Of a stretch of 64,000 bases of DNA, positions 3,637 through 52,067 are shown in pieces; the first letter of the stretch is position 1; the number at the start of each line of letters is the position of its first letter. A program made the position numbers and the translations under genes. A model generated the notes under the pieces. It was not told where the DNA came from and did not search any database. It worked only from the letters and a program-made list of their open reading frames with translations. The stretch covers positions 12,993 to 76,992 of the forward strand of contig SCTS01000002.1 of the NCBI GenBank assembly GCA_004322365.1. The letters are read 5' to 3'. This DNA is from Patescibacteria group bacterium (GTDB lineage: Bacteria > Patescibacteriota > Minisyncoccia > Phycocordibacterales > Phycocordibacteraceae).

Positions 3637-5253
3637 TCAGGGGTTCACGCTACAATCCCGTGCTTCGTAGATGTATATATCTTTTCCTAGTTGTTGTATC
3701 TGGTAAAAAGACGGCATAAGCATTCTGCCGAGGTTTATATCAATATCAAACACATCAGCCACCCCATTACCAAAATGTGCGAGTGGCGTGCAATTCACCA
3801 CTTCTCGCTCAACAATAATAAGATCAGCGGCCGGCACATCGGTATGCGCTAACAAATCGGAATCGTTCGTAACAACGAGTGGCCGAAACGAAATATCGCT
3901 CGAGAGCGCTTGTGTATGTTGGCACGCGGAGCCACACGATGATGGTGCATACAAAGCGTACGAAACTTTGTTCATTGGGAGCGTAAACTCAAAAATATTT
4001 TCATCAATACGAATCTCCGTATCTCCGTAACGCTCTACTATATAGTCGTACGCCACATTGTAGGTCGTAGGTATGGAGAGCAATACTATCGTATACACAT
4101 ACACAGCGAGCCCTACAACAAAAAAGACGCGCGACACCAATCGCAAAGGTGGTTTGAATGAGGCGAGGAGAAAGAGTAGAAAGAAGCCGACAGGAGCGAT
4201 GTGTCGAACATTGAGCGCAAGTCCGTGGTCGGCCCGGAACACAACCGAAACCGCAATAATATAAAGTGCGCTATACAAAAGGGCGAGGAAGAAGAGCGCT
4301 TTGTTGCGTATGCCGGCATACACAGCTGGTATGAGCGCCAAAAGAAGCAAGGGAAACGATTCAACGGCTTGACGCACATTAACTATGAGCGACTCAAACA
4401 CCGTAAGCGACGTCTGCACACTTGCACCTGCAGAATTAGACACGAAAAATTGCATCACAAATCCGGAAGCCTGCTCAACAACATTTCCCGCATTCAGTGC
4501 AAAGAACCCCAAGAACACCACCATGCCAACTGCAATCATCACTATAAGTCGCTTGAAGACTGCGGGTGTACGCCAAAATACGAAAAGAAGTATCGGAATA
4601 TTAATGAGAAAGAGGCCGGCAAAAAGGAAATTAGACGCTGCCAGAAATGCCGTCATTATTGAAGTGAATGACATCCATCCCAATTGACCACGCTCTCGAT
4701 CTTCCGTTATTGCACGGTACAGATAGATAAAAGAAACAACAATGAGAAGAATCGAGAGCATCCACATTTTGCCTGAGCGCACAAGAAGCGTGGTAAGCAC
4801 ACTGCCGAAGGTAAGCATGAGGAGTGCGAGTCGCCACTCCACACCTTGAATGTGCGCTTTCAGAAATCGGTACACTAGTATCAAGAGCGCCACCGATGTG
4901 AGCGCAGAGACAATGCGCGGTACGATGAGACTATACGAAGGATTCTGAATAAGCGCAGTTTTCAAAGCCACGATGTCGAAACCGAAAAACGGAATACTGC
5001 CAGCAAGTGCGACCACCATGGCGACATAATTCTGATAAAACGAGAGTGTGCCGTACGCGACACCGTAGCCTGGTAGAAGCGTGTGCGCTTCAATGGCACG
5101 GAGCACTCCACCGCCAAATGCCCACACATCGGTGATAGTGTTCACCATAGGGAACGCGTACCATACGCCAACAAAAAAACTTGCGCCAAAAATCATAATC
5201 ACCCACTGTTCCAGCGTCATGGCACGGAGGATGCTTCGCATTCTATTCAACAT
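3637..5253 (-). CDS. Polytopic membrane protein, probable GT-C superfamily glycosyltransferase (ArnT/PMT-like)
   Basis: About 12 predicted TM segments and a C-terminal soluble domain. Start set at the internal Met (MLNRMRSILRAMTLEQW), because the longer ORF would overlap the divergent gtrA promoter region and the REP-like repeat. Confidence 0.4.
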   Translation of the reverse strand: MLNRMRSILRAMTLEQWVIMIFGASFFVGVWYAFPMVNTITDVWAFGGGVLRAIEAHTLLPGYGVAYGTLSFYQNYVAMVVALAGSIPFFGFDIVALKTALIQNPSYSLIVPRIVSALTSVALLILVYRFLKAHIQGVEWRLALLMLTFGSVLTTLLVRSGKMWMLSILLIVVSFIYLYRAITEDRERGQLGWMSFTSIMTAFLAASNFLFAGLFLINIPILLFVFWRTPAVFKRLIVMIAVGMVVFLGFFALNAGNVVEQASGFVMQFFVSNSAGASVQTSLTVFESLIVNVRQAVESFPLLLLALIPAVYAGIRNKALFFLALLYSALYIIAVSVVFRADHGLALNVRHIAPVGFFLLFLLASFKPPLRLVSRVFFVVGLAVYVYTIVLLSIPTTYNVAYDYIVERYGDTEIRIDENIFEFTLPMNKVSYALYAPSSCGSACQHTQALSSDISFRPLVVTNDSDLLAHTDVPAADLIIVEREVVNCTPLAHFGNGVADVFDIDINLGRMLMPSFYQIQQLGKDIYIYEARDCSVNP

Positions 5254-5267
5254 AACGATACGAGAAA

Positions 5268-5381
5268 GTATACCCCCACACCAATTCTTTTGAAATTTCA
5301 CCATATTCAAAAAATATCTACCGAGAGAAAAATTCTTTCTTACTATAGGAAATACTGTGTGGAATTGGTGTGGGGGTATAC
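5268..5381. repeat. Perfect 20-bp inverted repeat pair GTATACCCCCACACCAATTC (5268-5287 and 5362-5381) in a divergent intergenic region
   Basis: Read directly: copy b is the exact reverse complement of copy a, spacer about 74 bp. Related single copies occur at 19818, 21925 and 34296. Confidence 0.8.
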
Positions 5382-5459
5382 CGCCAAACGGAGAGTGTGG
5401 CTGGACGAGCACGATGTATACTACTAGCGATGACTTGGCTGATTGCACTTCATACGCGA

Positions 5460-5879
5460 ATGGAAACATTGCTCGGAGTGCGTCTATATCGCATAGTTCG
5501 CTACCTCATGTCGGGAGGTATTGCTATGGCGAGCAACCTCGGCGTACTGTTTCTCCTCGTACATTTCATTAATGTGTATTATTTGTACGCATCAGTTATT
5601 TCATTCATCATGTCGGCCGCCGTTTCTTTCACGATGCAGAAATTTTGGACCTTTCAGGATCGACCGATGCACGATGTACAGAAGCAATTCACACGCTACA
5701 TCGTTGTCCTTATTGCCAATCTTCTGTTCAACACTCTCCTTATGTACCTATTCGTAGAAAAAATCGGCATGTGGTATTTGTTTGCACAACTCCTTGCAAC
5801 GATGATCGTTGCAGTAAGCGGCTACTTCGGATATCGACATTTTGTATTCCGTGATCGCTCGCCCACAACAAAGACATGA
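5460..5879 (+). CDS. GtrA-family membrane protein (polyprenyl-phosphate-sugar flippase-like)
   Basis: About 140 aa with 4 TM helices; LVRYLMSGGIAMASNLGVLFLL and C-terminal YxxHRxxVF pattern typical of the GtrA family. Stop overlaps the start of the next GT-C gene (ATGA). Start could also be 5430. Confidence 0.55.
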   Translation: METLLGVRLYRIVRYLMSGGIAMASNLGVLFLLVHFINVYYLYASVISFIMSAAVSFTMQKFWTFQDRPMHDVQKQFTRYIVVLIANLLFNTLLMYLFVEKIGMWYLFAQLLATMIVAVSGYFGYRHFVFRDRSPTTKT

Positions 5880-7156
5880 TGTTCCTACGAACATACCGCG
5901 CTGAAATCATAGTAGGACTTTTGGCACTTGCGGCACATCTCGCATGCTTTGCGTTTGTACTCCATGCAAATGACGGGAGCGTACTAAACACCGTTCGGGG
6001 CGACGACGGATACTTTGAACTTGCCAAAAATGTCCTTGCGGGCAACGGATTTTCCTGGGGAGCGTCCGCACCATACGCGCCCAATCCCCTACGCACACCA
6101 GGGTTTGTGTATGCGCTTTCCGGACTCCTCGGCATCTTTGGTGTAACAGGAGCCGCGCTCATACAACTCGCTCTAGCTTCTGCTATACCAATCTTTGGCA
6201 TGTGGATTGCAAGACGCATTAGTGCTTCACAGAAAATTGGCTATCTCGCTGGAGCCATTCTCGCCCTTGATCCAACACTCGCACTGCTCTCCTTCCAGTT
6301 TTATACCGAGACACTGTTTCTACTTCTTTTCCTACCCTGGCTTCTACTCACATTCCGCTATCTTGAAAAACGAGATTGGATAACACTCGCCCTCAGCGCC
6401 GCTATCCTCGGAAGCGCGATACTTGTTAAGACAAGCGCGCAGTATATTCCACTTATCTTCATCCCATTCATCCTCTGGCACTTCGGCAAAAAAGATTGGC
6501 AACGCGGTATCGCACATGCAAGCCTGTATCTTCTTATTATCGGTGCGATACTCACGCCGTGGATCTTACGGAATGCCTATACCTTTGGTGTACCCGGCTT
6601 GAGCGCACAAACGCCGTTCGTTCTCTATACCAACCTCGCCCCCGCCGTCTTGAGCGTAGCGAAAGGAAGTGACTTTCTTCAAGAAAGAGAAATGTTTATG
6701 ACGCCCGCCGAGTACAAAGGTGATGTCATTACCCTTGCGAACGAGAGCGACTACCGGAAGCGTGCACTCGATATCGCACTCGCACATCCCGTCGCAACGC
6801 TCTATGTCGCTGGCAAGTCCCTTGTTACTTTCTTCACCAACGATGGGTTCTATACACTCCTCGTGCGTGGAGGCTATAACCCGCACGAATTTTTACCACT
6901 CATTATTGTGGCGCGACTTCTATGGGTAGCAATAACACTCGCCGCATTCGTTGGCGCACTGGTCTACCTTCTGAGGCAACGTTCACAACTCGCAATTCTC
7001 ATTATCCTTCTTATTGCTTATTTTGCACTCACCAGTACCATCGCTGCATTCGGCACCAACCCTCGCTATCGACTCCCCGTTGACCCAATCATCATTGCGT
7101 TTGCGAGCGTCGGCTACATGTATCTCACAACACTACTACGACGACGCACACACTAG
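5876..7156 (+). CDS. GT-C superfamily membrane glycosyltransferase (ArnT / PMT_2-like, 4-amino-arabinose/mannosyltransferase-type)
   Basis: 426 aa, about 11 TM segments, N-terminal extracytoplasmic loop with D-x-D/DDGYF-like motif. Translationally coupled to gtrA. Confidence 0.5.
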   Translation: MMFLRTYRAEIIVGLLALAAHLACFAFVLHANDGSVLNTVRGDDGYFELAKNVLAGNGFSWGASAPYAPNPLRTPGFVYALSGLLGIFGVTGAALIQLALASAIPIFGMWIARRISASQKIGYLAGAILALDPTLALLSFQFYTETLFLLLFLPWLLLTFRYLEKRDWITLALSAAILGSAILVKTSAQYIPLIFIPFILWHFGKKDWQRGIAHASLYLLIIGAILTPWILRNAYTFGVPGLSAQTPFVLYTNLAPAVLSVAKGSDFLQEREMFMTPAEYKGDVITLANESDYRKRALDIALAHPVATLYVAGKSLVTFFTNDGFYTLLVRGGYNPHEFLPLIIVARLLWVAITLAAFVGALVYLLRQRSQLAILIILLIAYFALTSTIAAFGTNPRYRLPVDPIIIAFASVGYMYLTTLLRRRTH

Positions 7157-15240: not shown

Positions 15241-16056
15241 CTAGATTTTTCTGAATTCTTTGCGACGGCGCCATAGAGCTCTGATAAGACGAACATGGTA
15301 CACATGCCGGCTTAACTCAATCTTCAGTGGCATTTTCTTCCCCCTGCAGAACAGGCGAACCTTCACTAATTGCAACAAATAGAACAGTGACACGCGTGCG
15401 TGCCACCAAATGGTGTGGAAAAATTGTCGCCAGAACGATGCGCCGAGGACCTCCTGATTCACTTGTAGTTGAATATAGTAATCCATTTTTGATGGACTCG
15501 GACCTTGCGTACCGTCAACGGGTACATAGAGTGTGCCGACGACTTTCTCTGTCACGACACCCGGCTTGAGTTCAATACGCTCGTGCACTTTTTTTATAAA
15601 ACGCTTCACTGAAGCCTTAGCAAACAAACGCATGGATAGATTGGGATATGTGGTTGCGCACATGACCTCCTCCCCACCCACTACATACCTACGATATAGG
15701 GCGTACACACCCTCTGCCTGTGTCGTTGTGACACGGCGTATCTCATTTTCTAATTCCTTGGAAATATATTCATCTGAGTCGAGAAAGAAGAACCACGGCT
15801 CGCGCGATGCGTCGAGTGTCTGATTTCGTACGGCACCAAAATCGGCGATGCGTCCCTCTGTATCGAGCAATAAGGGATTCTGATGTATCACCCGTGCACC
15901 GTATTGCTCGGCGATATTCAAAGTGTCGTCAGTCGAACCGCCATCGCAAATAACGATGTCACTAAAATTCTTGACGCTCTCAAGCGCACGCGCGATTGTA
16001 TGCCCAGAATTCTTCGTCAGAATCGCAACGGTGCATGGCACAGAATTGTTGTTCAT
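15241..16056 (-). CDS. GT2-family glycosyltransferase
   Basis: VAILTKNSGHTIARALESV...DIVICDGGSTDDT..DSDE: GT-A fold with DxD (DSD); 271 aa. Confidence 0.65.
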   Translation of the reverse strand: MNNNSVPCTVAILTKNSGHTIARALESVKNFSDIVICDGGSTDDTLNIAEQYGARVIHQNPLLLDTEGRIADFGAVRNQTLDASREPWFFFLDSDEYISKELENEIRRVTTTQAEGVYALYRRYVVGGEEVMCATTYPNLSMRLFAKASVKRFIKKVHERIELKPGVVTEKVVGTLYVPVDGTQGPSPSKMDYYIQLQVNQEVLGASFWRQFFHTIWWHARVSLFYLLQLVKVRLFCRGKKMPLKIELSRHVYHVRLIRALWRRRKEFRKI

Positions 16057-17540
16057 ATTCGTTTGATCACCTCTTTTTTATTCAACAATGTTCCATATTT
16101 GCTGGCCGGAATCACTTTCACTTCGACAACTCCCTCACTATAACGAAGAGCTATAATTTTTCCAGTACGAACAGAATACCGCGGTAACAACAATACGATG
16201 CACTCCCGCACGAAGCACCACATACGCAGAACGGCTTCTCGGATGTATCCGCCACGGAGTGCGTACCAAGTGTGATTGACTGTTTCTCGGATTGAAAAAA
16301 GAAATGCGGGCGGAAGCGCCGGACATTTAAAGCTCCACCATACTGATCCCTCGAGTCCGTTGTCGTAAATACCTTCACTGAAGTTGCGCTTTTGCCATCG
16401 TGCGTTTACAAGAACACGATGTGAGGAATTCGTGTCCGTAAATACTTCCGTCCCTTCGAAACGAAACGAGAAATCCTCTAAAGACGATGCACTGTCGAGT
16501 TTCGACTTGATATCACCGACACGCAGCATCCACGCGAGATGCGCTGTCCAAAATATCGCACACTGAAAATTCACCGGCGCACCGATGTGCGAGTGCAAAT
16601 ATCCATCAAAGAAGTGTCTCTGTGTTTGGAACAAAAGATTGTGGAGCGCAACAGTAGCCGTCGGCTCTTTTGAATGAGCGAGCGCATACGCATCGAAGCC
16701 GGCGGAGGCGACCTCATACGGAGACTGCCAGTACCAGCGTTTACATTCCATTCGTAAATCTTTTGTGCCGTCGGCCTTGTACATCGCAAGCAACGCCCGC
16801 TCACTTTTAAGTAAGCGTTCTTCAAAAGGCGTCGCGTCTATTCCTGTGGCGTCGAGTGAATACCGGATGAACGCTATGCAGCGCGACTGATAAAATGTTG
16901 TGATACCCTCGTACCCTTCGAAATTGCCATGCTCGCGCGCGTGCGGCATATAGAGAAAGAAGCCGTCAACAGTCATGTCGGAAAACGCCTGCTCGATACT
17001 CGCACGAACTACATCATCGTATTCGTGCGTGCCCGCATAGTGCGCGTAGGATGCAAGACCGGTGAGTCCCCAGAGGCGCTGATTAGTGATCGATTTTTCC
17101 GCGGCAGCATTCACGAGATAGCTTTCGACGACATCGCGCAGCCCTGCCGTATACTCTTCATGCTCTTCGTTTGTAAACGCGCTCTGGTGCAAACGGAGAA
17201 AGCGAGATATGGAGTCGACGCACGCGCCGGCGTCGATCACATTCTGCGACATGTTCATCGGGTTCATATGCCCCGGGTAAAAGACCTTTCCTGCTTTTGT
17301 GTCGGTCACGAGAGTGAAGAGGTACGCGATAAGCTTCTTCCCTTTCTCAATCTCGCCGAGAGTTGAATAGAAATCGAGCAGGTAGCAGTTGCTTCCTGTA
17401 TGCTCGACATGATGCTTGCCACAGCGTTGATGCTTCTCAAGATATGAAGTAGCGTCGCGAACGAGTGTACCTAAGGTGCTCACAGATGCCGAATGTTGAC
17501 GCCTAGGTATTTCCTTCATACTACGGAAGAATAGCGTCAA
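16053..17540 (-). CDS. Hypothetical protein, possibly alpha/alpha-toroid polysaccharide-modifying enzyme (heparinase II/III-like or C5-epimerase-like)
   Basis: 495 aa, no TM; motifs NQRLWGLTGLASYAHYAG, W/Y/H-rich helical N-half and beta-rich C-half. Stop/start overlap with the GT2 gene (ATGA) implies co-expression. Confidence 0.25.
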   Translation of the reverse strand: MTLFFRSMKEIPRRQHSASVSTLGTLVRDATSYLEKHQRCGKHHVEHTGSNCYLLDFYSTLGEIEKGKKLIAYLFTLVTDTKAGKVFYPGHMNPMNMSQNVIDAGACVDSISRFLRLHQSAFTNEEHEEYTAGLRDVVESYLVNAAAEKSITNQRLWGLTGLASYAHYAGTHEYDDVVRASIEQAFSDMTVDGFFLYMPHAREHGNFEGYEGITTFYQSRCIAFIRYSLDATGIDATPFEERLLKSERALLAMYKADGTKDLRMECKRWYWQSPYEVASAGFDAYALAHSKEPTATVALHNLLFQTQRHFFDGYLHSHIGAPVNFQCAIFWTAHLAWMLRVGDIKSKLDSASSLEDFSFRFEGTEVFTDTNSSHRVLVNARWQKRNFSEGIYDNGLEGSVWWSFKCPALPPAFLFSIRETVNHTWYALRGGYIREAVLRMWCFVRECIVLLLPRYSVRTGKIIALRYSEGVVEVKVIPASKYGTLLNKKEVIKRI

Positions 17541-17594: not shown

Positions 17595-17891
17595 ATGAGA
17601 AACATCATGCAGTGGCAACAGGCCCTCAAGACGGCGGCAGAGCAGAAATTTCCCAATAGCGGATGGTCGCACACTGACCGTCTTGCTTCGGTACGAAGAC
17701 AACTCGAGGATGTTGAGGCTTCGCTCAAAGTGGAGAGTGGGGAATTACAAAGCGACGACCATGCACACCAAGACCCAAATCACCGAATTGGTGCACTGAT
17801 TGCCGACATCTTAATTCTCGCCGAAGAACGGAACGCCGATATTGAAAACGAGCTTGAAAAAGTACTCGCGTGGTTTGAAAAGCGCGACTAG
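17595..17891 (+). CDS. MazG-like nucleotide pyrophosphohydrolase domain protein
   Basis: 98 aa, EExxE...D acidic helix motifs (LEDVEASLKVESGE..ELEKVLAW) typical of small MazG/NTP-PPase proteins. Confidence 0.45.
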   Translation: MRNIMQWQQALKTAAEQKFPNSGWSHTDRLASVRRQLEDVEASLKVESGELQSDDHAHQDPNHRIGALIADILILAEERNADIENELEKVLAWFEKRD

Positions 17892-18883
17892 AGCGAGACG
17901 CGCCTTCCCTCTCGGGCTGAAATTCGCATCGCTTCCAAAACACTCGCTTGGCGGATGATACGGTCGTACATTTCTTCAAGCTGTTTTGTATTCTGTGCGA
18001 CAACAGCTTGGCAAAAGAAATCAAAACTAAGAGCGAATTGATTTGCTGTTGGGATTTCTAAACTCATGCGTGTGTCTTTGGCACCATCGTTGGTGATGAG
18101 TTCGACAATCGGTGCCATCGTAGGCGGTATAGCAAATGCGCGACTCGTTCGCACCATTCCTTTGGAACCCCAAACCGAATAGGTATTTTGATAGAGGTGA
18201 TCAAAACCAAATGACATCAGTGCAGTCCCCTTTTCGAATTCAAGAAATGCAGAACCTTTGATATCCACATCCTGGCCATCCTGTGCAAGCGTGCAAGTAA
18301 CGGCAACTGGTTCCTGTTGCATTATTTTTCGTGCCATGAAAACCGTATAGCAACCCGCATCGTTGAGAGCACCACCCTTCAAATCCGCGCTATAGCGAAT
18401 ATCACCAGACGGGAACGGTGGGAATCCGTACGCACCATTCCACACATGTGGTGTGCCGATTTTCCCTTCTGCAATGAGCGATAGAATTGTCGCGTGTTGT
18501 GGATGGAACTCGGGAACGAAATTCTCATACAATGCAACACCTTTTTCTCGACAAGCATTAACCATACGCTGTGCCGATTCTAGACTATAGGTAATCGACT
18601 TCTCGCAGATGATGTGTTTCCCAGACTGCGCCGTTTTTAGTACCCATTCCTCCTGAAGTCCCACAGGAAGTGGAATATATATGACATCGATATCGTCGCG
18701 CGCAATCAAGGAATCATAGGTCTCGGCTTCTACTCCGTGGCGCACTGCCCACTCCTCTGCCTTGCTCTTCTCGCGACTAGCTATCGCGACCAGCTCGATA
18801 TCGGGAAGGGATTTGAATGCTGGTATCGCGTATTTTTCCGCGATGTTAGCACAACCTAGAATACCGACACGGATTTTTTTCAT
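17888..18883 (-). CDS. Gfo/Idh/MocA-family NAD(P)-dependent oxidoreductase (candidate NDP-hexose 3-ketoreductase)
   Basis: IRVGILGCANIAEKYAIPAF Rossmann N-terminus and EKPI-like motif (ICEKS). Start at MKKIRVG overlaps the stop of the upstream gene (ATGA). Confidence 0.7.
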   Translation of the reverse strand: MKKIRVGILGCANIAEKYAIPAFKSLPDIELVAIASREKSKAEEWAVRHGVEAETYDSLIARDDIDVIYIPLPVGLQEEWVLKTAQSGKHIICEKSITYSLESAQRMVNACREKGVALYENFVPEFHPQHATILSLIAEGKIGTPHVWNGAYGFPPFPSGDIRYSADLKGGALNDAGCYTVFMARKIMQQEPVAVTCTLAQDGQDVDIKGSAFLEFEKGTALMSFGFDHLYQNTYSVWGSKGMVRTSRAFAIPPTMAPIVELITNDGAKDTRMSLEIPTANQFALSFDFFCQAVVAQNTKQLEEMYDRIIRQASVLEAMRISAREGRRVSL

Positions 18884-19518
18884 AACAAAGCGCATACATT
18901 ACGCGCGAGAGAATTAACCGTCGTATCAACGCGCAAGAGTTTCTTAATCTCGGGGAGTGTGAGCCAAATGTAATCTTCAGTAACGGGCACTTCTTCCGAT
19001 TCGTCCACCTCCACAAGCATTGAACGGTTCACCTTATGAAAAAACCGACCGCCGTCTTCGACGCCCAAAACTGATGCAATGAGTCTTCCTTTCGTCCCGT
19101 CAAAATATTCAGCAAGTCGTGGACGCTTTCCTCCATGCGCTTGCGCCAGATTGCCTTCGGAAACCTGACATGCCGGCGATATCTGCACATTGTTGATATT
19201 CCCCGGCTCAAATTTTGCATAGAAAAGATACTTTGTGACACCGTCTTTCTTTTGCACTAACACGCCTGAAATGCCGACCTCTTCCTGTTTCAACATCGGC
19301 TGACTCCACGACGGCACTTCCCTGTCCGACGCACCTGTTATCTTTACGCCAATAATCGAGAAAAATTTTCCTGACTCATGCGTGATATTCCCACTTACAG
19401 GATCTGTTTTCCAACCCTGCACATCATTTACCCCGACCGCTTCCACGGTGACTGGGTACGAATCCTGCTTTTCTTTGAGCCACGCGAGAATGGGATTTAT
19501 ATCAACGTCTTCATTCAT
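18880..19518 (-). CDS. Hypothetical protein, candidate single-domain NDP-hexose 2,3-dehydratase (EvaA/TylX3-like)
   Basis: 212 aa; EDGGRFFHK motif reminiscent of the EEGGRF motif of hexose 2,3-dehydratases. Context: immediately upstream of a Gfo/Idh/MocA reductase and near a sugar C-methyltransferase, as in 2,6-dideoxysugar pathways. Confidence 0.3.
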   Translation of the reverse strand: MNEDVDINPILAWLKEKQDSYPVTVEAVGVNDVQGWKTDPVSGNITHESGKFFSIIGVKITGASDREVPSWSQPMLKQEEVGISGVLVQKKDGVTKYLFYAKFEPGNINNVQISPACQVSEGNLAQAHGGKRPRLAEYFDGTKGRLIASVLGVEDGGRFFHKVNRSMLVEVDESEEVPVTEDYIWLTLPEIKKLLRVDTTVNSLARNVCALL

Positions 19519-19536
19519 ACCCCCACACCTTTTATC

Positions 19537-19791
19537 TCATAAAATGCTTCTTGAAATCCTCCTTTTGAGTTGCCCGAGCGCTTTCCCATCTTTCTTGAGA
19601 GAAAATTCTCTACCTCTTGCATCTCGTTCTGAAGTGTAAGCCTCATAATAACAGAGCTCAAAGGGTCGGCGAGGCTTGGTAGATTTGACCGCTCCGCCAT
19701 TGTGTTCGGAAAGTCTTCGACGCAAATCATTTGTCGATCCAACGTATAACTTTTCATCCTTGAGGCTTTTAAGCACATATACGTAATACAT
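19537..19791 (-). CDS. GIY-YIG nuclease-domain protein (stand-alone, UPF0213-like)
   Basis: YYVYVLKS...KLYVGSTNDLRRRLSEH: canonical GIY..YIG..R..H motif; 84 aa. Confidence 0.7.
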   Translation of the reverse strand: MYYVYVLKSLKDEKLYVGSTNDLRRRLSEHNGGAVKSTKPRRPFELCYYEAYTSERDARGREFSLKKDGKALGQLKRRISRSIL

Positions 19792-19830
19792 AGCGAATGG
19801 GTGGAGCCAATGAGATAAAAGGTGTGGGGG

Positions 19831-21060
19831 TCATACAATTTCAACACTAGGGATAGGGATAATAAATTTGGCACCGCGTGCACGCAATTCTTTTTCTTTT
19901 TCGAGAATGAAGTCACGGTAATTCCACGCAAGCAATAACACGTAGTCCGGCGTCTCGGTCTTTAGTATATCGGGAGAAACGACTGGAATATGACTCCCTG
20001 GTGTAAGGAGTCCAATTTTGTACGGAGTTGTATCAGTAACATACTCAACATCATCTTGAGTAAAGCCACAAAAATTTAAAAGAGTGTTGCCTTTGGCTGG
20101 TGCGCCATAAGCAACCACCTTCTTCTTTTCTCTCTGCATTCCTCGCACGAGCGACACGAGCTTCTCTTTGATTGCCTCTGCGTCTTTCTGGAAATCAGCA
20201 AATCGCGCGAGTGAGTGAAGTCCTGCTTTCTCTTCAAGTGCGAAAAGTTCATGCACAGAATTTTCAATCGGTAATCCGGACGCCTTGCGAGCAAAGACAC
20301 GAATAGACCCACCATGCGTCGGCATGCGTCGCACATCAAAAACTTCCATACCAAACCGACCAAATAAGTGCTGTAGAGGTTTCACGCTGTAATAGCACAG
20401 ATGCTCATGATAAACCGTATCAAATTCCCCATGCTCCACGAGGTCTAGTAAATAGTGCGACTCCGAAACGAATACGCCGTCATCAGTAAGAAGATCTTTT
20501 ACCCCTTGCACAATTTCATCAAGATCGTCTATGTGCGCAAAAACATTGTTCGCGGAAATGACTTTTGCCTTGCCCTTTGTCTCAACTATTTTTTTCGCCA
20601 TTTCAATGGTAAAAAAACCGTCCTCAGTTTCGATTCCTTTTGCACGCGCAGCTTCGGCAACATTCGCCGACGGTTCAATACCGAGCACTCGATTTGTACC
20701 AATGAAATTTTGTAACAAAATGCCATCATTGCTACCAATATCAACAACGAGGTCGTCTGGCGCCACATGTTCACTTTTTAAATCATTCGCATACGAACGA
20801 AAATGGTCAACGAGCGGTTTAGAAGCAGAGGAAAAATACGCATACTCACCGTGAAAAAGTTCGTCTTCCGCAACTACATCGAGAAGTTGAACCAGGTTGC
20901 AGGTACCGCAAAAATACACATCTAAGGGGTATCGTTTTTCGTCTTTGATATGTTCGGCATCAGTAAAATTATCAACTGGCGGATGCTCGCCAAGCGAGAG
21001 AATGCGCGTGAGACTAGAGCCTTTGCACACACGACAGATATCATTACGAAGATGGCTCAT
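19831..21060 (-). CDS. NDP-hexose C-methyltransferase (TylCIII/EryBIII-like; Zn-ribbon + class I MTase + C-terminal C-MT domain)
   Basis: N-terminal CxxC...CxxC (CRVCKG..CGTC), motif I VVDIGSNDG, 409 aa; architecture typical of sugar 3-C-methyltransferases. Confidence 0.6.
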   Translation of the reverse strand: MSHLRNDICRVCKGSSLTRILSLGEHPPVDNFTDAEHIKDEKRYPLDVYFCGTCNLVQLLDVVAEDELFHGEYAYFSSASKPLVDHFRSYANDLKSEHVAPDDLVVDIGSNDGILLQNFIGTNRVLGIEPSANVAEAARAKGIETEDGFFTIEMAKKIVETKGKAKVISANNVFAHIDDLDEIVQGVKDLLTDDGVFVSESHYLLDLVEHGEFDTVYHEHLCYYSVKPLQHLFGRFGMEVFDVRRMPTHGGSIRVFARKASGLPIENSVHELFALEEKAGLHSLARFADFQKDAEAIKEKLVSLVRGMQREKKKVVAYGAPAKGNTLLNFCGFTQDDVEYVTDTTPYKIGLLTPGSHIPVVSPDILKTETPDYVLLLAWNYRDFILEKEKELRARGAKFIIPIPSVEIV

Positions 21061-21084
21061 AGCACGCAGTATACCGAACGACTG

Positions 21085-21918
21085 TTATACCTTCCATTCC
21101 TCGGACACATACTCAGCAAGTGCCTCTTGCCACGGTCGGAGAGCTACCCGTTTTGAGGAAATAGATTCATTTGTTGGAAGCGTTGTGCTGGATGCGAAGT
21201 AACTTCGATCGACGGCACGCACGTGTGCGTCTGGCTTTACGTGGGTAGCCATTGCAGTAGCGAGGTCAAAGCGCGTAGCGGTACCAGCATTTGCAATGTG
21301 AAATATGCCCCGCTCGCCTTTTTCGAGCAGGTCTTTAATCGTTGCAACAAAATCTTTCCCGTATGTTGGCGAACCGTGCACATCGTAGAGAGCGGTGACC
21401 TCTGTGCCCGACCGCAATTGTTTCAGGACTTTTCCGTAAAACTTATTGTCTCGATCAGAACCACCACCAAATACCCACGCGGTGCGAGCGATGATGTACG
21501 ACTCTACAAGTGATGCGACGATGAGCTCGCTCATGTATTTAGTGCGGCCGTAGTGCGTCTGCGGATCTGGCGCGTCATCTTCAGTGTACGGACCTTTTTT
21601 GTGCCCGTCGAAAACACGCGAACTCGAAGCGAGAACCATGGTCGCGCCAACTGATGTGGCAGCTTGCGCCACATTGTACGTACCGCGCACATTAAGCTCG
21701 TAGGCATACAGGGGATCCTGTTCTGTTTTCACCATGTCAGTTGCGCCTGCGAGGTGAATGATCGCGCTTGGATTGTTTTTTTTGACGAACTCCATGACTG
21801 CATCCGCATCAAGAATATCGAGTGTTGTTTGGTCTGGACGATAGCCGAAATCTACATACGAACCGATCATTCCGCCGGCACCAATGGTAAGAACTTTTTC
21901 GAAATCAAAAGAGTTCAT
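21085..21918 (-). CDS. dTDP-4-dehydrorhamnose reductase-like SDR (RmlD-like 4-ketoreductase)
   Basis: Start set at MNSFDFEKVLTIGAGGMIGSYV (glycine-rich NAD motif), YGRTK YxxxK catalytic motif, about 277 aa. The upstream part of the track ORF carries the REP-like motif and is probably untranslated. Confidence 0.5.
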   Translation of the reverse strand: MNSFDFEKVLTIGAGGMIGSYVDFGYRPDQTTLDILDADAVMEFVKKNNPSAIIHLAGATDMVKTEQDPLYAYELNVRGTYNVAQAATSVGATMVLASSSRVFDGHKKGPYTEDDAPDPQTHYGRTKYMSELIVASLVESYIIARTAWVFGGGSDRDNKFYGKVLKQLRSGTEVTALYDVHGSPTYGKDFVATIKDLLEKGERGIFHIANAGTATRFDLATAMATHVKPDAHVRAVDRSYFASSTTLPTNESISSKRVALRPWQEALAEYVSEEWKV

Positions 21919-21940
21919 AGAGATGAAAGGTGTGGGGGGG

Positions 21941-22657
21941 TCATACAGCACGCTTCGCGATCTCATGTGCGACACGGAGTAGAGATTCGAATGTGCCCGC
22001 GTCCGACCACAAACCTTTAATAATTCCGTGGGAGAGTTTTTCTTTCTTGATATAGATGTTGTTGGCGTCCGTAATTTCCAACTCACTTCGCCCTGAAGGC
22101 TTCAGCGTTTTTATGATGGAAAAAATATCGTTGTCATACAGATAAAAACCAGTTTGGGCAAATTTTGATTTTGGTTTCTTTGGTTTTTCTTCAATCTTCA
22201 CTACCCTCTTACCTGCTGTATCAAACACGGGCACACCAAAACGGTGTGAGTCATTCATTGCCTTAAAAAATACTTTCGCGCCACCATTGAAAGAGGCAAC
22301 ATCTTTTGCAAAATCTTGTTCAAATATATTGTCACCCAGAATGACAGCAATCGGCCCTCCGTCGGAGAAATCTTCCGCGTAGCGTAGCGCGTCGGCGATA
22401 CCTCCGTTGTTTTTGTCTTGCAACGCATACGAGAGCTTGACACCGAACTCTCTGCCCGAGCCGAGGAATTGCATAAAGTGGCCCGCATGCTCGCGTCCAG
22501 TTACTATCATGATATCGGTAACGCCTGAACGCTGCAGCGTCTCCAGAGGGTAGAGAATCATTGGTTTGTTGTATACAGGAAGAAGGTGCTTATTTGTAAT
22601 AAGCGTCAAGGGGCGCAAGCGTGTACCGAGTCCTCCTGCAAGAATAACGCCTTTCAT
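21941..22657 (-). CDS. Sugar-1-phosphate nucleotidyltransferase, short-form glucose-1-phosphate thymidylyl/uridylyltransferase (RmlA-like)
   Basis: MKGVILAGGLGTRLRPLT signature, 238 aa. Confidence 0.7.
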   Translation of the reverse strand: MKGVILAGGLGTRLRPLTLITNKHLLPVYNKPMILYPLETLQRSGVTDIMIVTGREHAGHFMQFLGSGREFGVKLSYALQDKNNGGIADALRYAEDFSDGGPIAVILGDNIFEQDFAKDVASFNGGAKVFFKAMNDSHRFGVPVFDTAGKRVVKIEEKPKKPKSKFAQTGFYLYDNDIFSIIKTLKPSGRSELEITDANNIYIKKEKLSHGIIKGLWSDAGTFESLLRVAHEIAKRAV

Positions 22658-22658
22658 A

Positions 22659-23735
22659 CTATTTTTTATTTTTGTGCCCTTCCCACAAATCTATGTGCGG
22701 GTTGAATACACCAGTCTTACGGCGAACCCTCTCTATCCACTTCCTATTTTGAGTGTACCACTTTACCGTATCAGCAAAAGCCTGGTCAAAGAGGTACTCT
22801 GGTTTCCAGCCAAAGTCTTTCATAATGAGCGACGCGTCAATGGCATACCTACGGTCGTGCCCCGGCCTTTCGGCAACAAATTCAATCATGTCTTTACCTT
22901 TACCAAAATATTTCAAGATACGATCAGCGATTTCACGGTTATTCATCTCATTGTCCGCGCCAATGTTATACACCGTTCCTGGTTTTCCATTAAGGAGGCA
23001 TAGCTCCAGCGCCTTGCAGTGATCCAATACATACACCCAGTCACGCACATGATTACCATCACCATACAAAGGAAGTGTCTTTCCTTCAAGCATACGGAGT
23101 ACAAAAAATGGAATGAGTTTTTCTGGATACTGGCGCGGGCCGTAGTTATTAGAACAGTGCGTTACGACAACTGGCACGCCCCATGTATTGTGATAGGCAC
23201 GACACAGCATATCGCCTCCGGCTTTCGTCGCAGCATACGGCACATTCGGCGCAAACGCCGTATGCTCAGAAAACTTATCTTCAGAATCCAGCGCAAGCGA
23301 ACCATACACCTCGTCAGTAGAAACCTGTACAAACGATTGCACCGTACCTCCCACCTTGACGGCTTCAAGTAAATTGAACACACCAACGATGTTGGTATTG
23401 ATAAATTCCAGTGAGCCAACATGGATACTGCGATCAACATGCGTCTCGGCTGCGAAATTTATGACATAGTCGGGTTGATATTTCTTAAATACAGCAGTGA
23501 CTTTCTTTTGGTCAGCTATGTCACCGCGCACAAATGTATAGCGTGCATCTTTTACAAAATCTCGCACATTGTCCGTATTGCCGGAATAGGTAAGCTTATC
23601 AAAATTGATGATGCGCACCTTGGGATATTTCTCAAAGATATGATGAATGAAGTTCGAGCCAATGAATCCCGCTCCACCGCATACTAATAGCACCTTGCCA
23701 TTTAGGGAACGTTTCGCACTCTGTTTCGTTGACAT
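22659..23735 (-). CDS. rmlB: dTDP-glucose 4,6-dehydratase
   Basis: VCGGAGFIGSNF, YAATKAG (YxxxK), NNYGPRQYPEKLIP: hallmark RmlB motifs; 358 aa. Confidence 0.8.
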   Translation of the reverse strand: MSTKQSAKRSLNGKVLLVCGGAGFIGSNFIHHIFEKYPKVRIINFDKLTYSGNTDNVRDFVKDARYTFVRGDIADQKKVTAVFKKYQPDYVINFAAETHVDRSIHVGSLEFINTNIVGVFNLLEAVKVGGTVQSFVQVSTDEVYGSLALDSEDKFSEHTAFAPNVPYAATKAGGDMLCRAYHNTWGVPVVVTHCSNNYGPRQYPEKLIPFFVLRMLEGKTLPLYGDGNHVRDWVYVLDHCKALELCLLNGKPGTVYNIGADNEMNNREIADRILKYFGKGKDMIEFVAERPGHDRRYAIDASLIMKDFGWKPEYLFDQAFADTVKWYTQNRKWIERVRRKTGVFNPHIDLWEGHKNKK

Positions 23736-23785: not shown

Positions 23786-24553
23786 CTACAGTGTATCCTC
23801 CCAAACCTTATGCGTGAGTGTCCTCCCGCCGTATGTACCTGCCTTAATTTGTTCTACGGCTTTCGCTTCAGCAGCATTTCGTGCCTGCATACCTGGATCG
23901 TTTGCAAGCGTTACTTCAAAAAAGCGCTTAAATTTGTTGCTTTTTGTTGAGAGGATTTTGGTGGTATCAAGAAACTGCACTGTAAGTGCGTTACTCTTAA
24001 TGGCTCTCACAAACTCCGAGAGGAGTTCCCTTTCTTCATCGCTATCGGCAAAGTCCTCGATGTGATTGAAGAGCGCCATCGCGCGCGGCACATGCCATTC
24101 TGCCAATACAAATACTAGGTTATGCCACGAACGCTCTTTCCAAAATCGAGCGGCTTCTTTGTATTCGGTAATCGTGTCGACGGAAACTTCTTCGAGTAAG
24201 ATCTGTTTTTCGTTGACACCTTTTCCCATCAGTTCATCCTTAATGAGAGATGCGTATGTGGGCTTGTTTTCATCTCGCGACTTGCTCATTGCAACCAAAT
24301 ACGCTTCGGGATACGCTCCATTCATTTCAACAGTGGCAAGCACCCGATCTCTGCCACCAGCAGGAAGTGCCGTCCCTAAGACGCGTGCACTGTTTTCGTC
24401 ACCAACGCCAAACGAGCTGGTCACATATTTTCCCTTTGCCTCGTTCCACCTCATGTTTCCAGTGAGCACGAAGAATGCATCAGGGACACCTTCTACAAGA
24501 TGCCGTAATGCTTCTTTTGTTTTTTCACTTGAGTACCTCCGGCGTTCACTCAT
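23786..24553 (-). CDS. DUF218-domain protein (YdcF/ElyC/SanA family)
   Basis: FFVLTGN and VFVLAEWHVPRA resemble the conserved VTSxxHMxRA motif of DUF218; 255 aa. Confidence 0.4.
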   Translation of the reverse strand: MSERRRYSSEKTKEALRHLVEGVPDAFFVLTGNMRWNEAKGKYVTSSFGVGDENSARVLGTALPAGGRDRVLATVEMNGAYPEAYLVAMSKSRDENKPTYASLIKDELMGKGVNEKQILLEEVSVDTITEYKEAARFWKERSWHNLVFVLAEWHVPRAMALFNHIEDFADSDEERELLSEFVRAIKSNALTVQFLDTTKILSTKSNKFKRFFEVTLANDPGMQARNAAEAKAVEQIKAGTYGGRTLTHKVWEDTL

Positions 24554-25479
24554 ACCTCCTCCTGCACTATGTAAATTGGGCGTTTTTTAGTCTCTTCAAA
24601 TGTCTTGCCGAGGTAGAGTGCAATAATACCGAGCATTACCGACAAAAAACCGAAGATAAGCCAGAGTGAGCCCATGAGTAAACCAAACGACTGAGTAGAG
24701 CCGACAAGGAATCCTTGTACCACTGCAACTGCAAGATACCCACCTGCAAATAAAACAACAAGAACTCCTACTTTTATAATCAGGTGGAGTGGTTTTTCTG
24801 AATAGGCAAGAATGATATCCGTAGCGAGACTAAAAAGTTTTACGAGTGAGTATCCAGATTTGCCACCTTTCCGTGACGCATGTTCCACTGGCACGGTTGC
24901 GGTGCGGAAGCCTACCCACCGAACCATAACGGAGAAATATCGCATGTGATCTTGCAGAGAGAGAATTGCATCGATGACCTTCCGATGGTACAGCCCGAAA
25001 TTCGTGAGCGTACGGTTATGGCGACGCCCAGTGAGATAATTAAGAGTGGAATAAAATCCCCACGACACCAAAGACCGGAGCGGGCTGTCATGCCGTTTCT
25101 GCCGTGATCCAACGACGACGAAAAACCCTTCTTGGGCTTTCTGATACATCTTTTCAATTTCTTCCGGCTGATCTTGCAAATCGCAGTCCATAACAACCAC
25201 CCACTCGCCACGACTTGCTGAAAGTCCAGCAGTAATTGCCGGATACTGGCCAAAGTTGCGCGAAAGATTGAGTCCGCGGACTCGCGTATCGAGCACTGCC
25301 AACCCTTGTATCACCTGCCATGCACTATCGGGACTGGCGTCATTTACAAAAATTATCTCGAAATGCGGAGTGATTTTTTTGAGCGTTTCAAGGGTACGCC
25401 GATACAGCTCATCCAGTACCTCTGCAGAACCATACACGGGAACCACTACCGATATTTCAGACTGCACGCTCTGATCCAT
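24550..25479 (-). CDS. GT2 polyprenyl-phosphate glycosyltransferase (GtrB / DPM1 / ArnC-like) with C-terminal TM helices
   Basis: ISVVVPVYGSAEVL...EIIFVNDASPD...VVVMDCDLQD (DxD) and two C-terminal TM helices; 309 aa. Confidence 0.7.
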   Translation of the reverse strand: MDQSVQSEISVVVPVYGSAEVLDELYRRTLETLKKITPHFEIIFVNDASPDSAWQVIQGLAVLDTRVRGLNLSRNFGQYPAITAGLSASRGEWVVVMDCDLQDQPEEIEKMYQKAQEGFFVVVGSRQKRHDSPLRSLVSWGFYSTLNYLTGRRHNRTLTNFGLYHRKVIDAILSLQDHMRYFSVMVRWVGFRTATVPVEHASRKGGKSGYSLVKLFSLATDIILAYSEKPLHLIIKVGVLVVLFAGGYLAVAVVQGFLVGSTQSFGLLMGSLWLIFGFLSVMLGIIALYLGKTFEETKKRPIYIVQEEV

Positions 25480-50828: not shown

Positions 50829-51014
50829 AATAGGCGCTGACCTACAATTGAATACGTATCAAGAGTGTGAGGAGGCATCTGGGCCTACGATTCACCAGCA
50901 ACTTGTCGAAAGATAAAGTGCTACCAGCCCTTCGGGGAAAGATATCTTACACAAAATCTTTCCTTAATAGGGAAAGATTTTTTATTTATTATTCACTCAT
51001 TAATCAACATCAAT

Positions 51015-52067
51015 ATGCTTCACTTACTTAAGACATACACAACCGAGAGCGTTACCGCAGGACATCCCGACAAAGTCTGCGATCAAATATCAGATGCAAT
51101 TTTAGATGCCTGCTTAACGCAAGATCCAACAAGTCGAGTAGCTGTCGAGTCTTTTGGCAGTCATGGATACATGATGCTCGGCGGTGAAGTGCGGACAAAT
51201 GCGACAGTTGATTATACAGGTATCGCCCGTAAGGTCTATACAGATATTGGCTACACAGAACCGTTAGATATTCTTGAACATATCGCCAAGCAATCTGGAG
51301 ATATTGCGATGGGTGTAGACACCGGTGGCGCAGGTGACCAAGGCATCATGTATGGCTACGCTACAAATGAAACAAAAGAAATGCTCCCATTAGGTGTCGT
51401 ACTTTCTCATGCACTTGCACGCCGACTAGAAGCGCTTCGTCGTGACGGAACACTTCCCTGGGCACGACCAGATGGAAAAACACAAGTCACCATTTCAAAT
51501 GGCAAAGTAATTACTGCACTCACTTCAACTCAGCACACAGCGGATGTTTCTCAAGAAGAAATTCGCGCAAAACTCACCGAGCATTTGTTCGGGTCAGTAT
51601 TGGGAGATCTATCGGGAATTGAAATACTAGTGAATCCAACAGGTCAATTTATTCAGGGAGGATTTGAAGCAGACGCAGGTCTCACTGGACGAAAGATAAT
51701 GGTAGACACCTACGGAGGTTTGATGCCACACGGGGGCGGAGCTTTCTCAGGAAAAGACGCTACAAAGGTTGATCGCTCCGCTGCGTACATGTGCCGATTT
51801 GCTGCAAAGAACCTCGTTGCAAATGGCTATGGCACAAAAGTATTAGTGTCAGTTGCCTACGCTATCGGTCGCGTGGAGCCAGTGATGGTTGAAGCATTTG
51901 ATGATTCTGGAAAAGACTTGAGCGAGATTGTGCAGAAAAACTTTGACTTCCGTCCACGGGCAATTATTGAGCGCCTAGGACTCACCCGCCCAATCTTTCA
52001 AGCAACAGCAGCATACGGACACTTCGGCGTTGAAGGTAGACCATGGGAAAATATTGAGAAAATCTAA
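51015..52067 (+). CDS. metK: S-adenosylmethionine synthetase
   Basis: ESVTAGHPDKVCDQISDAILDA and GGGAFSGKDATKVDRSAAY signatures. Confidence 0.9.
   Translation: MLHLLKTYTTESVTAGHPDKVCDQISDAILDACLTQDPTSRVAVESFGSHGYMMLGGEVRTNATVDYTGIARKVYTDIGYTEPLDILEHIAKQSGDIAMGVDTGGAGDQGIMYGYATNETKEMLPLGVVLSHALARRLEALRRDGTLPWARPDGKTQVTISNGKVITALTSTQHTADVSQEEIRAKLTEHLFGSVLGDLSGIEILVNPTGQFIQGGFEADAGLTGRKIMVDTYGGLMPHGGGAFSGKDATKVDRSAAYMCRFAAKNLVANGYGTKVLVSVAYAIGRVEPVMVEAFDDSGKDLSEIVQKNFDFRPRAIIERLGLTRPIFQATAAYGHFGVEGRPWENIEKI

Follow-up and report, generated by a model that had tools for sequence, protein, structure and literature searches.

A candidate pathway to a mycarose-type 2,6-dideoxy-3-C-methyl sugar, with a single-domain 2,3-dehydratase, in a surface-glycan locus of a Parcubacteria-type bacterium

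The chemistry that leads to branched 2,6-dideoxy sugars is already known from actinomycete antibiotics, where it is part of the mycarose and olivose pathways. In the D-mycarose branch of mithramycin biosynthesis in Streptomyces argillaceus (MtmD/E, MtmC), the sugar is derived from deoxythymidine diphosphate (dTDP)-glucose, it is 2-deoxygenated by a 2,3-dehydratase together with a 3-ketoreductase, and it is methylated at C-3, all without a 5-epimerase. The dTDP-L-mycarose pathways of tylosin (TylX3, TylC1, TylC3, TylK and TylC2) and erythromycin (EryB) likewise use a 2,3-dehydratase, a 3-ketoreductase, a TylC3-type methyltransferase and a 4-ketoreductase, and they include a 5-epimerase of the TylK/RmlC type. 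TylC1 and EryBII are aldo-keto reductases. Two solved enzymes are of special importance for the present comparison, i.e., the 2,3-dehydratase EvaA of Amycolatopsis orientalis (PDB 4J7G/4J7H), which has 471 residues in two tandem domains with one active pocket, and the C-3 ketoreductase KijD10 of Actinomadura kijaniata (PDB 3RBV). Here, a stretch of 64,000 nucleotides of contig SCTS01000002.1 (assembly GCA_004322365.1, positions 12,993 to 76,992), in the following called the window, was analyzed, and a cassette of six minus-strand genes at positions 17888-23735 is described, which could encode a related pathway. An earlier note on this DNA had proposed that the genes specify a dTDP-linked, C-methylated and possibly 2,6-dideoxy sugar within a cell-surface glycan locus of a small-genome bacterium.

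The six open reading frames (ORFs) of the cassette were all recovered at their first-noted coordinates in an ORF check of the window, and all of them matched the predicted families far beyond chance in Pfam and NCBIfam scans, for which the Pfam gathering scores and the NCBIfam equivalog cutoffs were used as thresholds. The assignments of the earlier note to RmlB, an RmlA-like and an RmlD-like protein, a C-methyltransferase, a dehydratase and a Gfo/Idh/MocA oxidoreductase were thus borne out. Neither of the two outcomes that the note had named as refuting its proposal was observed, because the dehydratase ORF matched hexose 2,3-dehydratases significantly and the methyltransferase ORF matched sugar C-methyltransferases. 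The gene order was also as claimed, apart from a small GIY-YIG element, not mentioned in the note, that lies between the methyltransferase gene and the dehydratase gene. The cassette probably makes a dTDP-activated 2,6-dideoxy-3-C-methylhexose of the mycarose type, which would then be used via a lipid carrier and a glycosyltransferase (GT) of the GT-C type. Based on family membership and the established knowledge of deoxysugar pathways, a short RmlA would form dTDP-glucose, which RmlB would convert to dTDP-4-keto-6-deoxyglucose. A Nudix-like 2,3-dehydratase of 212 amino acids (aa) would remove the 2-hydroxyl group and yield a 3,4-diketo-2,6-dideoxy sugar, whereupon a translationally coupled KijD10-like Gfo/Idh/MocA enzyme would reduce C-3, an S-adenosylmethionine (SAM)-dependent enzyme of the MtmC/TcaB9 type would methylate C-3, and a short-chain dehydrogenase/reductase (SDR) of the RmlD family would reduce C-4. 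Compared with the mithramycin branch, the host belongs to the Candidate Phyla Radiation (CPR), the genes reside in a surface-glycan locus instead of a polyketide cluster, the dehydratase has half the size, a separate RmlD-family reductase is present, and the stereochemistry of the product is a prediction. Compared with the tylosin and erythromycin pathways, no 5-epimerase of the TylK/RmlC type was found in the window, and the 3-ketoreductase is of the Gfo/Idh/MocA (KijD10) type.

The central enzyme of the cassette is the putative nucleoside diphosphate (NDP)-hexose 2,3-dehydratase (positions 18880-19518, minus strand). It matched the Pfam family Hexose_dehydrat (PF03559, 1.8e-58) with 197.8 bits, compared with a cutoff of 25, and the match covered the profile positions 3-203 of 203. 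EvaA was the only match among solved structures (E = 9.6e-71), and homologous proteins of 212 aa already carry the name "NDP-hexose 2,3-dehydratase family protein" in public annotation. In place of the two tandem Hexose_dehydrat domains of a chain of about 470 aa, the protein has a single domain, which scored 152.7 bits against the N-domain of EvaA and 86.4 bits against its C-domain. An AlphaFold2 model based on 35 homologs had a predicted local distance difference test score of 87.6 and a predicted template modeling (TM) score of 0.83. A Foldseek comparison of the model with EvaA (4j7h_A), in which it superposed on one EvaA domain, yielded an E value of 1.5e-17, a TM score of 0.83, a root mean square deviation of 2.3-2.4 Å and 38% identity, in agreement with the common Nudix-like fold, and the next-best structural matches were homodimeric Nudix hydrolases of the NUDT5 type. 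A review places the catalytic residues E139 and E190 of EvaA in pocket A and treats pocket B as a relic without activity (PMC8987622). A HMMER alignment revealed that E104 and E154 of the 212-aa protein correspond to these two glutamates, that E154 is the glutamate of its EDGGRF motif, and that both residues are invariant across 121 CPR homologs. The earlier note had regarded the dehydratase assignment as its weakest link; instead, the dehydratase turned out to be the best-conserved gene of the cassette.

A search of 1.84 billion cluster representatives yielded 1527 matching proteins. Among the best 150 of these, 148 were two-domain proteins, mostly of 400-500 aa, and only two had a single domain (247-248 aa, 55-59% identity), and therefore the half-size dehydratase is rare in sequence space. 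In CPR metagenomes the half-size form was abundant and tightly conserved, and the 120 best clusters listed were 210-237 aa long and 75-98% identical. The 212-aa protein scored higher against the N-domain than against the C-domain in 144 of the 148 two-domain proteins. For a comparison of signature residues, 137 two-domain proteins were split into their N- and C-domains, which were then aligned with the single-domain sequences. The single-domain protein has retained the N residue at 13 of 18 positions that are conserved only in N-domains (e.g., Q78, K102, N107, Q112, H128, and K162), and the C residue at three of four positions that are conserved only in C-domains (R66, E67, and G157), the fourth being a conservative exchange, D155 for E. 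As judged from the alignment, the protein unites the signature sets that are split between the two halves of the fused enzymes. Because N-type and C-type signature residues are joined in one chain, the comparison suggests that the protein forms a homodimer. Every subunit would take the N-type and the C-type role at once, two complete active sites would result, and the dimer would probably imitate the pseudo-dimer of the N- and C-domains of EvaA. In an unrooted neighbor-joining tree the single domains, the C-domains and the N-domains formed separate groups with bootstrap values of 100%, 80% and only 40%, respectively, and thus an ancestral and an early derived single-domain form cannot be told apart from it. 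No specific description of single-domain 2,3-dehydratases was found in the open-access literature.

The presence of C-domain-type signatures, i.e., E(D/E)GGRF and RE, also raises the question whether the 212-aa protein could be something other than an active 2,3-dehydratase, e.g., a Nudix-like protein that is of the remnant type, binds sugar nucleotides or acts as a hydrolase. The Gfo/Idh/MocA enzyme would then carry out another redox step, and the product would be a 3-C-methyl-6-deoxyhexose that keeps its 2-hydroxyl group. This would be in line with the inactivity reported for the second pocket of EvaA (PMC8987622) and with the two-domain structure of all characterized 2,3-dehydratases. However, both catalytic glutamates and most of the signature residues of the N-domain, which holds the active pocket, are invariant, and the preference for N-domains and the high conservation of the gene described above point in the same direction. 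In addition, the stop codon of the dehydratase gene overlaps the start codon of the gene for the KijD10-type 3-ketoreductase, an enzyme that would be without a substrate unless a 2,3-dehydratase is present. Furthermore, a distant locus described below (L032) pairs the single-domain dehydratase with RmlA, RmlB and the Gfo/Idh/MocA protein, and has no methyltransferase. An inactive dehydratase is therefore regarded as very improbable.

The partner of the dehydratase, a putative NDP-sugar 3-ketoreductase, is encoded at positions 17888-18883 on the minus strand. The ORF was originally listed as 17888-18895, and the most likely start, as read from the sequence, is at 18883 (MKKIRVG...). It was verified that the ATG at this position overlaps the stop codon of the dehydratase gene as ATGA, and therefore the translational coupling of the two genes that had been claimed earlier holds. 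The protein carries the N- and C-terminal GFO_IDH_MocA domains (4.8e-22), a family that was named before as a supplier of 3-ketoreductases. The comparison with solved structures was in accord with this, because KijD10 (3rbv), the 3-ketoreductase for the kijanimicin sugar, matched over the full length with 219 bits (7.8e-64), while the second-ranked family member scored 103 bits; the identity to KijD10 is only about 40%. The lysine of the KijD10 motif EKP is kept in an EKS motif, and the tyrosine of GVY aligns with that of GCY. These residues are presumably the functional residues K102 and Y186 of KijD10.

The sugar C-methyltransferase of the TylC3/TcaB9/MtmC type (positions 19831-21060, minus strand) has the three-part architecture of this family, i.e., the N-terminal zinc-binding domain Methyltransf_13 (PF08421, 2.1e-19), the SAM-binding class I methyltransferase domain Methyltransf_23 (PF13489, 1.1e-14), and the C-terminal domain Methyltransf_14 (PF08484, 6.9e-57), and the alignment showed that all four zinc cysteines (C9, C12, C51, and C54) are present. 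The closest solved relative is MtmC (4rv9, deposited as D-mycarose 3-C-methyltransferase) with 329 bits, followed by TcaB9 with 291 bits and the sugar 3-C-methyltransferase 5t6b with 289 bits. The alignments run from end to end (residues 8-408), and Y217-x-E219-H220 aligns with the YDEH motif of TcaB9, which we take to be part of its active site. A C-5 methyltransferase such as NovU was not among the solved-structure matches of the protein, and methylation at C-3 is predicted. Independent of the cassette enzyme, a second, divergent TylC3-type paralog (33-40% identity) was observed beside an SDR dehydratase-like gene in two loci of the comparison set (L002:499-2586 and L011:13889-15958). As this paralog resides in the same glycan loci, some genomes may encode a second C-methyl sugar pathway.

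The remaining three genes of the cassette are those for RmlB, the RmlA-like protein and the RmlD-like protein. RmlB, the dTDP-glucose 4,6-dehydratase (positions 22659-23735, minus strand), reached 441 bits against TIGR01181, well above the cutoff of 365.1, and it also has GDP_Man_Dehyd and Epimerase domains. The RmlA-like protein (positions 21941-22657, minus strand; NTP_transferase, 1.8e-54) is probably a short-form glucose-1-phosphate thymidylyltransferase of 238 aa. Its score of 229.6 bits against TIGR01207 was below the cutoff of 360.65, and its best solved relatives were all glucose-1-phosphate thymidylyltransferases, with the short form 3hl3 at the top (244 bits). The RmlD-family SDR, which is proposed to be the 4-ketoreductase, was originally listed as an ORF at positions 21085-22086 on the minus strand. 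Because this ORF overlaps the RmlA gene by 146 nucleotides and the orthologs begin with MNSFDF, the most likely start is predicted to be the ATG at 21918 (21085-21918, 277 aa, MNSFDFEKV...). The claim that this protein is an RmlD-like 4-ketoreductase stood with respect to the family (RmlD_sub_bind, 7.1e-56), but the score of 177 bits against the equivalog model TIGR01214 was below the cutoff of 224.05, and thus the protein appears to be a family member and not a certified RmlD. The closest solved relatives were RmlD enzymes with scores of not more than 133 bits.

This last result, together with surveys that reported dTDP-L-rhamnose synthesis to be conserved in Paceibacteria (PMC9166423), would also fit a reading in which RmlA, RmlB and the RmlD-like protein make dTDP-L-rhamnose in the usual way, together with an RmlC from another part of the genome. 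The methyltransferase, the dehydratase and the 3-ketoreductase would then branch off at the 4-keto-6-deoxy intermediate, and another enzyme, e.g., the MtmC-like methyltransferase itself, would reduce the branched sugar at C-4. MtmC is bifunctional and acts as a methyltransferase and as a 4-ketoreductase. However, in addition to the low score against TIGR01214, no epimerase of the RmlC type (dTDP_sugar_isom) was found among the scanned ORFs across the window, and the tightly packed cassette leaves no room for one in the 14 CPR loci that were compared. Furthermore, the RmlD-like reductase gene is always located between the RmlA gene and the methyltransferase gene. Rhamnose synthesis by these enzymes is thus judged to be quite unlikely, and more probably the RmlA, RmlB and RmlD-like genes of such cassettes serve the branched dideoxy sugar. 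A 5-epimerase (TylK/EryBVII, RmlC-like cupin) was likewise not found in the window, and the cassettes of the 14 loci contain none. Because of this and because the methyltransferase is closest to a D-mycarose enzyme, the best guess for the predicted product is a D-series 2,6-dideoxy-3-C-methylhexose. The suggestion of a mycarose-type sugar in the earlier note thus stands as far as the gene set for a branched dideoxy sugar is concerned, but L-mycarose itself finds no support, and a D-series sugar is more likely. An aminosugar pathway, which would combine a 2,3-dehydratase with an aminotransferase, was also considered and was rejected, as no sugar aminotransferase was present among the scanned ORFs across the window.

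To find related loci, one genome per species was scanned, which yielded 15 loci, 14 of them of the CPR type; some of the latter are labeled Saccharibacteria or Azotimanducaceae, and these labels were taken as given. In the 14 CPR loci the gene order GT2 (309 aa), RmlB, RmlA, RmlD-like, C-methyltransferase, dehydratase, and Gfo/Idh/MocA recurs with protein identities of 58-98%. The cassette genes mostly abut or overlap, and a convergent ORF of 98 aa follows the Gfo/Idh/MocA gene. The GT2 gene (positions 24550-25479 in the window, minus strand; Glycos_transf_2, 1.3e-28) is located directly 5′ of the RmlB gene in nine CPR loci. The encoded protein matched GtrB (sll0501, 1.5e-45) and ArnC (7.7e-45) over its full length (residues 6-307), and two hydrophobic helices (229-247 and 264-282) are predicted near its C-terminus. 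Polyprenyl-phosphate glycosyltransferases share this arrangement. A PMT_2 (GT-C) membrane glycosyltransferase gene with at least seven predicted hydrophobic helices in its product, the candidate user of a lipid-linked sugar, is found at positions 5876-7156 on the plus strand (PMT_2, 1.2e-10). In six loci (L003, L005, L008, L009, L011, and L014) its ortholog is adjacent to the opposite cassette end, at a distance of up to about 2.3 kb. The GT2 and PMT_2 genes, neither of which is mentioned in the earlier note, suggest how the sugar is used. The bracketing of the cassette by such a GT2 and a GT-C protein is reminiscent of glycosylation systems of the GtrB/GtrC and ArnC/ArnT types. In contrast to these, the implied donor is a dTDP-dideoxy sugar and not a uridine diphosphate (UDP)-sugar, and it is synteny that links the enzymes to the sugar. 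A GtrA-like flippase was not identified. The adjacent GT2 would probably load the sugar from its dTDP donor onto polyprenyl phosphate, and the PMT_2 protein would transfer it outside of the membrane onto a surface glycan or a protein. This route, to which synteny points, is put forward tentatively, with somewhat less than even confidence.

The main alternative is that the pathway operates as proposed, but that a cytoplasmic GT4 or GT2 uses the dTDP-sugar directly in a repeat unit built by a Wzx/Wzy system, and that the GtrB-like GT2 and PMT_2 are unrelated to the sugar and belong, e.g., to a glucose side-chain system. The window contains many GT4 genes, a Wzx flippase gene and a gene for a Wzy_C/TPR ligase-like protein, which could serve such a use, and the PMT_2 gene is about 10 kb away from the cassette. 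To our knowledge, the characterized enzymes of the GtrB/ArnC type use UDP-sugars. The conserved positions of the two genes speak against a direct use, because the GT2 gene leads the cassette in nine loci and PMT_2 lies near the opposite end in six. The same is true for L032, a more distant variant (Logan ERR15087765 contig, 58% identity, GC content 0.565), in which the PMT_2 gene adjoins the genes for RmlA, a GtrB-like GT2 and a single-domain dehydratase, although other genes differ. A direct use of the dTDP-sugar is therefore considered to be rather unlikely, and the lipid-carrier route is retained as the tentative proposal. In L032 the genes for RmlB, the Gfo/Idh/MocA protein and a second GT2 are on the opposite strand, and the cassette has neither a C-methyltransferase gene nor an RmlD-like gene; its product may be a 2,6-dideoxy sugar without a branch. 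From this variant it follows that the recurring core comprises the half-size dehydratase, the 3-ketoreductase, RmlA/RmlB, and the GT2/GT-C pair. The cassette, with a DUF218 gene in it, is also present in a deeper relative, L033, where the dehydratase shows 55% identity. The only locus outside of the CPR type, L015 (Bacillota), contains two dehydratase-domain matches followed by a Gfo/Idh/MocA gene. It had been considered as a split two-gene dehydratase, but this was dropped because both matches are in one frame and 115 nucleotides apart, and the gene in L015 is probably a normal two-domain dehydratase gene.

Several points weigh against the proposed pathway and its lipid-carrier branch. The characterized dehydratases all have two domains, and the activity and the oligomeric state of the single-domain form are predictions. 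The choice of C-3 over C-5 for the methylation and all stereocenters are predicted as well, and the bifunctionality of MtmC leaves the division of labor at C-4 uncertain. The solved relatives closest to the RmlD-like enzyme act on L-sugars, yet the window is devoid of an epimerase; the search for it covered the 64-kb window, and the remainder of the genome might encode an RmlC. For a GT2 of the GtrB/ArnC type, a dTDP donor would be without precedent, and it is gene adjacency among fairly close genomes that argues for it. Moreover, in the window the distance between PMT_2 and the cassette is occupied by inserted glycosyltransferase and methyltransferase genes.

The surroundings of the cassette agree with the earlier view of a cell-surface glycan locus. 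The host is, on the basis of its sequence, a Parcubacteria/Paceibacterota (CPR) bacterium, and the closest homologs, with 98% identity, are from metagenome-assembled genomes of Parcubacteria/Paceibacterota. The glycan locus spans about 1 to 37 kb of the window and, apart from the many GT4 genes, the Wzx-type flippase, the Wzy_C/TPR protein and PMT_2 mentioned above, it includes many GT2 genes, several class I methyltransferase genes, and genes for a GDP-mannose dehydratase, a ManC-type nucleotidyltransferase, and SDR epimerases/reductases. The GC content of the cassette (0.45-0.48) is the same as that of the window, and because of this and the widespread synteny in CPR bacteria a recent horizontal transfer of the cassette was ruled out.

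Several further genes accompany the cassette. The convergent acidic 98-aa ORF (positions 17595-17891, plus strand) adjoins the Gfo/Idh/MocA gene in 12 loci with identities of 58-87%, and it matched no Pfam family even at E = 1. A DUF218 protein gene (positions 23786-24553, minus strand; DUF218, 1.5e-11) is a variable passenger of the cassette; it resides in the gap between GT2 and RmlB in the window and in the gap between the RmlD-like gene and the methyltransferase gene in L005 (6002-6670) and L033 (5944-6711). A protein of 610 aa with at least 11 hydrophobic helices (3637-5469, minus strand) is conserved beside PMT_2 in six loci, and a soluble protein of 495 aa (16053-17540, minus strand) is kept near the cassette in three loci; both matched no Pfam family even at E = 1. 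The glycan locus also contains two tandem paralogs of the CofD/YvcK family (PF01933; 28106-30189, minus strand) with a mutual identity of about 50%. Farther away, a SAM (S-box) riboswitch (50853-50948, plus strand) was observed directly 5′ of a SAM synthetase gene (51015-52067, plus strand).

The element that interrupts the cassette is 311 bp long (positions 19520-19830, minus strand) and lies outside of the pathway. It contains an ORF of 84 aa with a GIY-YIG domain (19537-19791; Pfam, 8.6e-18), and its ends are perfect inverted repeats of 17 bp, CCCCCACACCTTTTATC...GATAAAAGGTGTGGGGG. In L001 the site is empty and reads GTATGAATGAAGAC, and the comparison shows that a duplicated TATGA borders the element on each side; the TGA stop codon of the upstream gene is restored by one copy and the ATG of the downstream gene by the other. 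The element is thus placed exactly at a stop/start overlap of co-translated genes. The full element was also found at other ATGA junctions, i.e., between RmlA and RmlD-like genes in L007 (1831-2141) and between the dehydratase and Gfo/Idh/MocA genes in L012 (8637-8948), and a decayed relative resides between the RmlB and RmlA genes in L002 (about 4921-5118). All copies in the window, L007, L012, and L002 are in the orientation of the operon. At the RmlA/RmlD-like junction of the window a solo footprint of the left end of the element with a length of 21 bp was detected (21920-21940, minus strand), which has TATGA on both sides; the minus strand reads GTATGA[CCCCCCCACACCTTTCATCTC]TATGAACTC, compared with the empty site CTATGAACCC in L001, and the full element is present at the same junction in L007. 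Two shorter elements have the same termini as the GIY-YIG element, CCCC(C/T)ACAC...GTGT(G/A)GGGG, but lack an ORF. One has 104 bp and is located at 5273-5376 of the window, with TATA on both flanks, and the other has 135 bp and is located in L012 (5630-5764), with TATGA on both flanks. From their sequences they look like non-autonomous relatives of the GIY-YIG element, similar to miniature inverted-repeat transposable elements.

The family of the 84-aa GIY-YIG protein comprises more than 369 clusters, and the named ones are from CPR lineages. The same termini (CCCCCACACCTTTCGTTTTAT...) flank an ORF of 84-86 aa in L016 (1160-1472) and L024 (1162-1478), from clusters named Candidatus Nomurabacteria. 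The contexts of these copies are unrelated, because the copy in L016 precedes rplJ and the one in L024 neighbors a YafQ/RelB pair. Short direct repeats, TTGA and TAA, flank them. Internal inverted repeats in the ORF co-vary between L016, L024, and L007, and they are not evident in the window copy. The element matched no Rfam family, an exact-sequence look-up yielded no match, and a described prokaryotic counterpart was not found in the literature. Judged by these sequence features, the GIY-YIG units seem to be small mobile elements of one family, with a preference for stop/start overlaps.

As the chemistry of the pathway is known, three aspects appear to be new, i.e., the single-domain architecture of the dehydratase with its dual signature, the conservation of the pathway in surface-glycan loci of CPR bacteria, and the implied link to a lipid carrier and a GT-C enzyme. 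No report about this pathway in CPR bacteria, about CPR deoxysugars, or about 2,6-dideoxy-3-C-methyl sugars in surface glycans was found in the open-access literature. It is tempting to speculate that many Parcubacteria-type CPR bacteria routinely decorate their surface with a mycarose-like sugar, using a half-size homodimeric dehydratase and a route from the dTDP-sugar via polyprenyl phosphate to a GT-C enzyme, and that the half-size form is a living model of the ancestor before the domain duplication or a reversion to it. This combined proposal is possible, yet somewhat doubtful.

For glycoengineering, the cassette would be of use as a compact set of six genes that leads to a mycarose-type donor. 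The 212-aa dehydratase represents a minimal system for studying how the active site of EvaA is assembled, and it bears on the question whether the "remnant" C-domain is really inert. If the proposed pathway is true, calls of a "rhamnose pathway" in metabolic surveys of CPR bacteria can belong to a different dTDP-sugar route. Although it is through their envelopes that the small cells of CPR/Patescibacteria attach to their hosts, these envelopes are almost uncharacterized, and a hydrophobic branched 2,6-dideoxy sugar would thus be a concrete and testable component of their surface.

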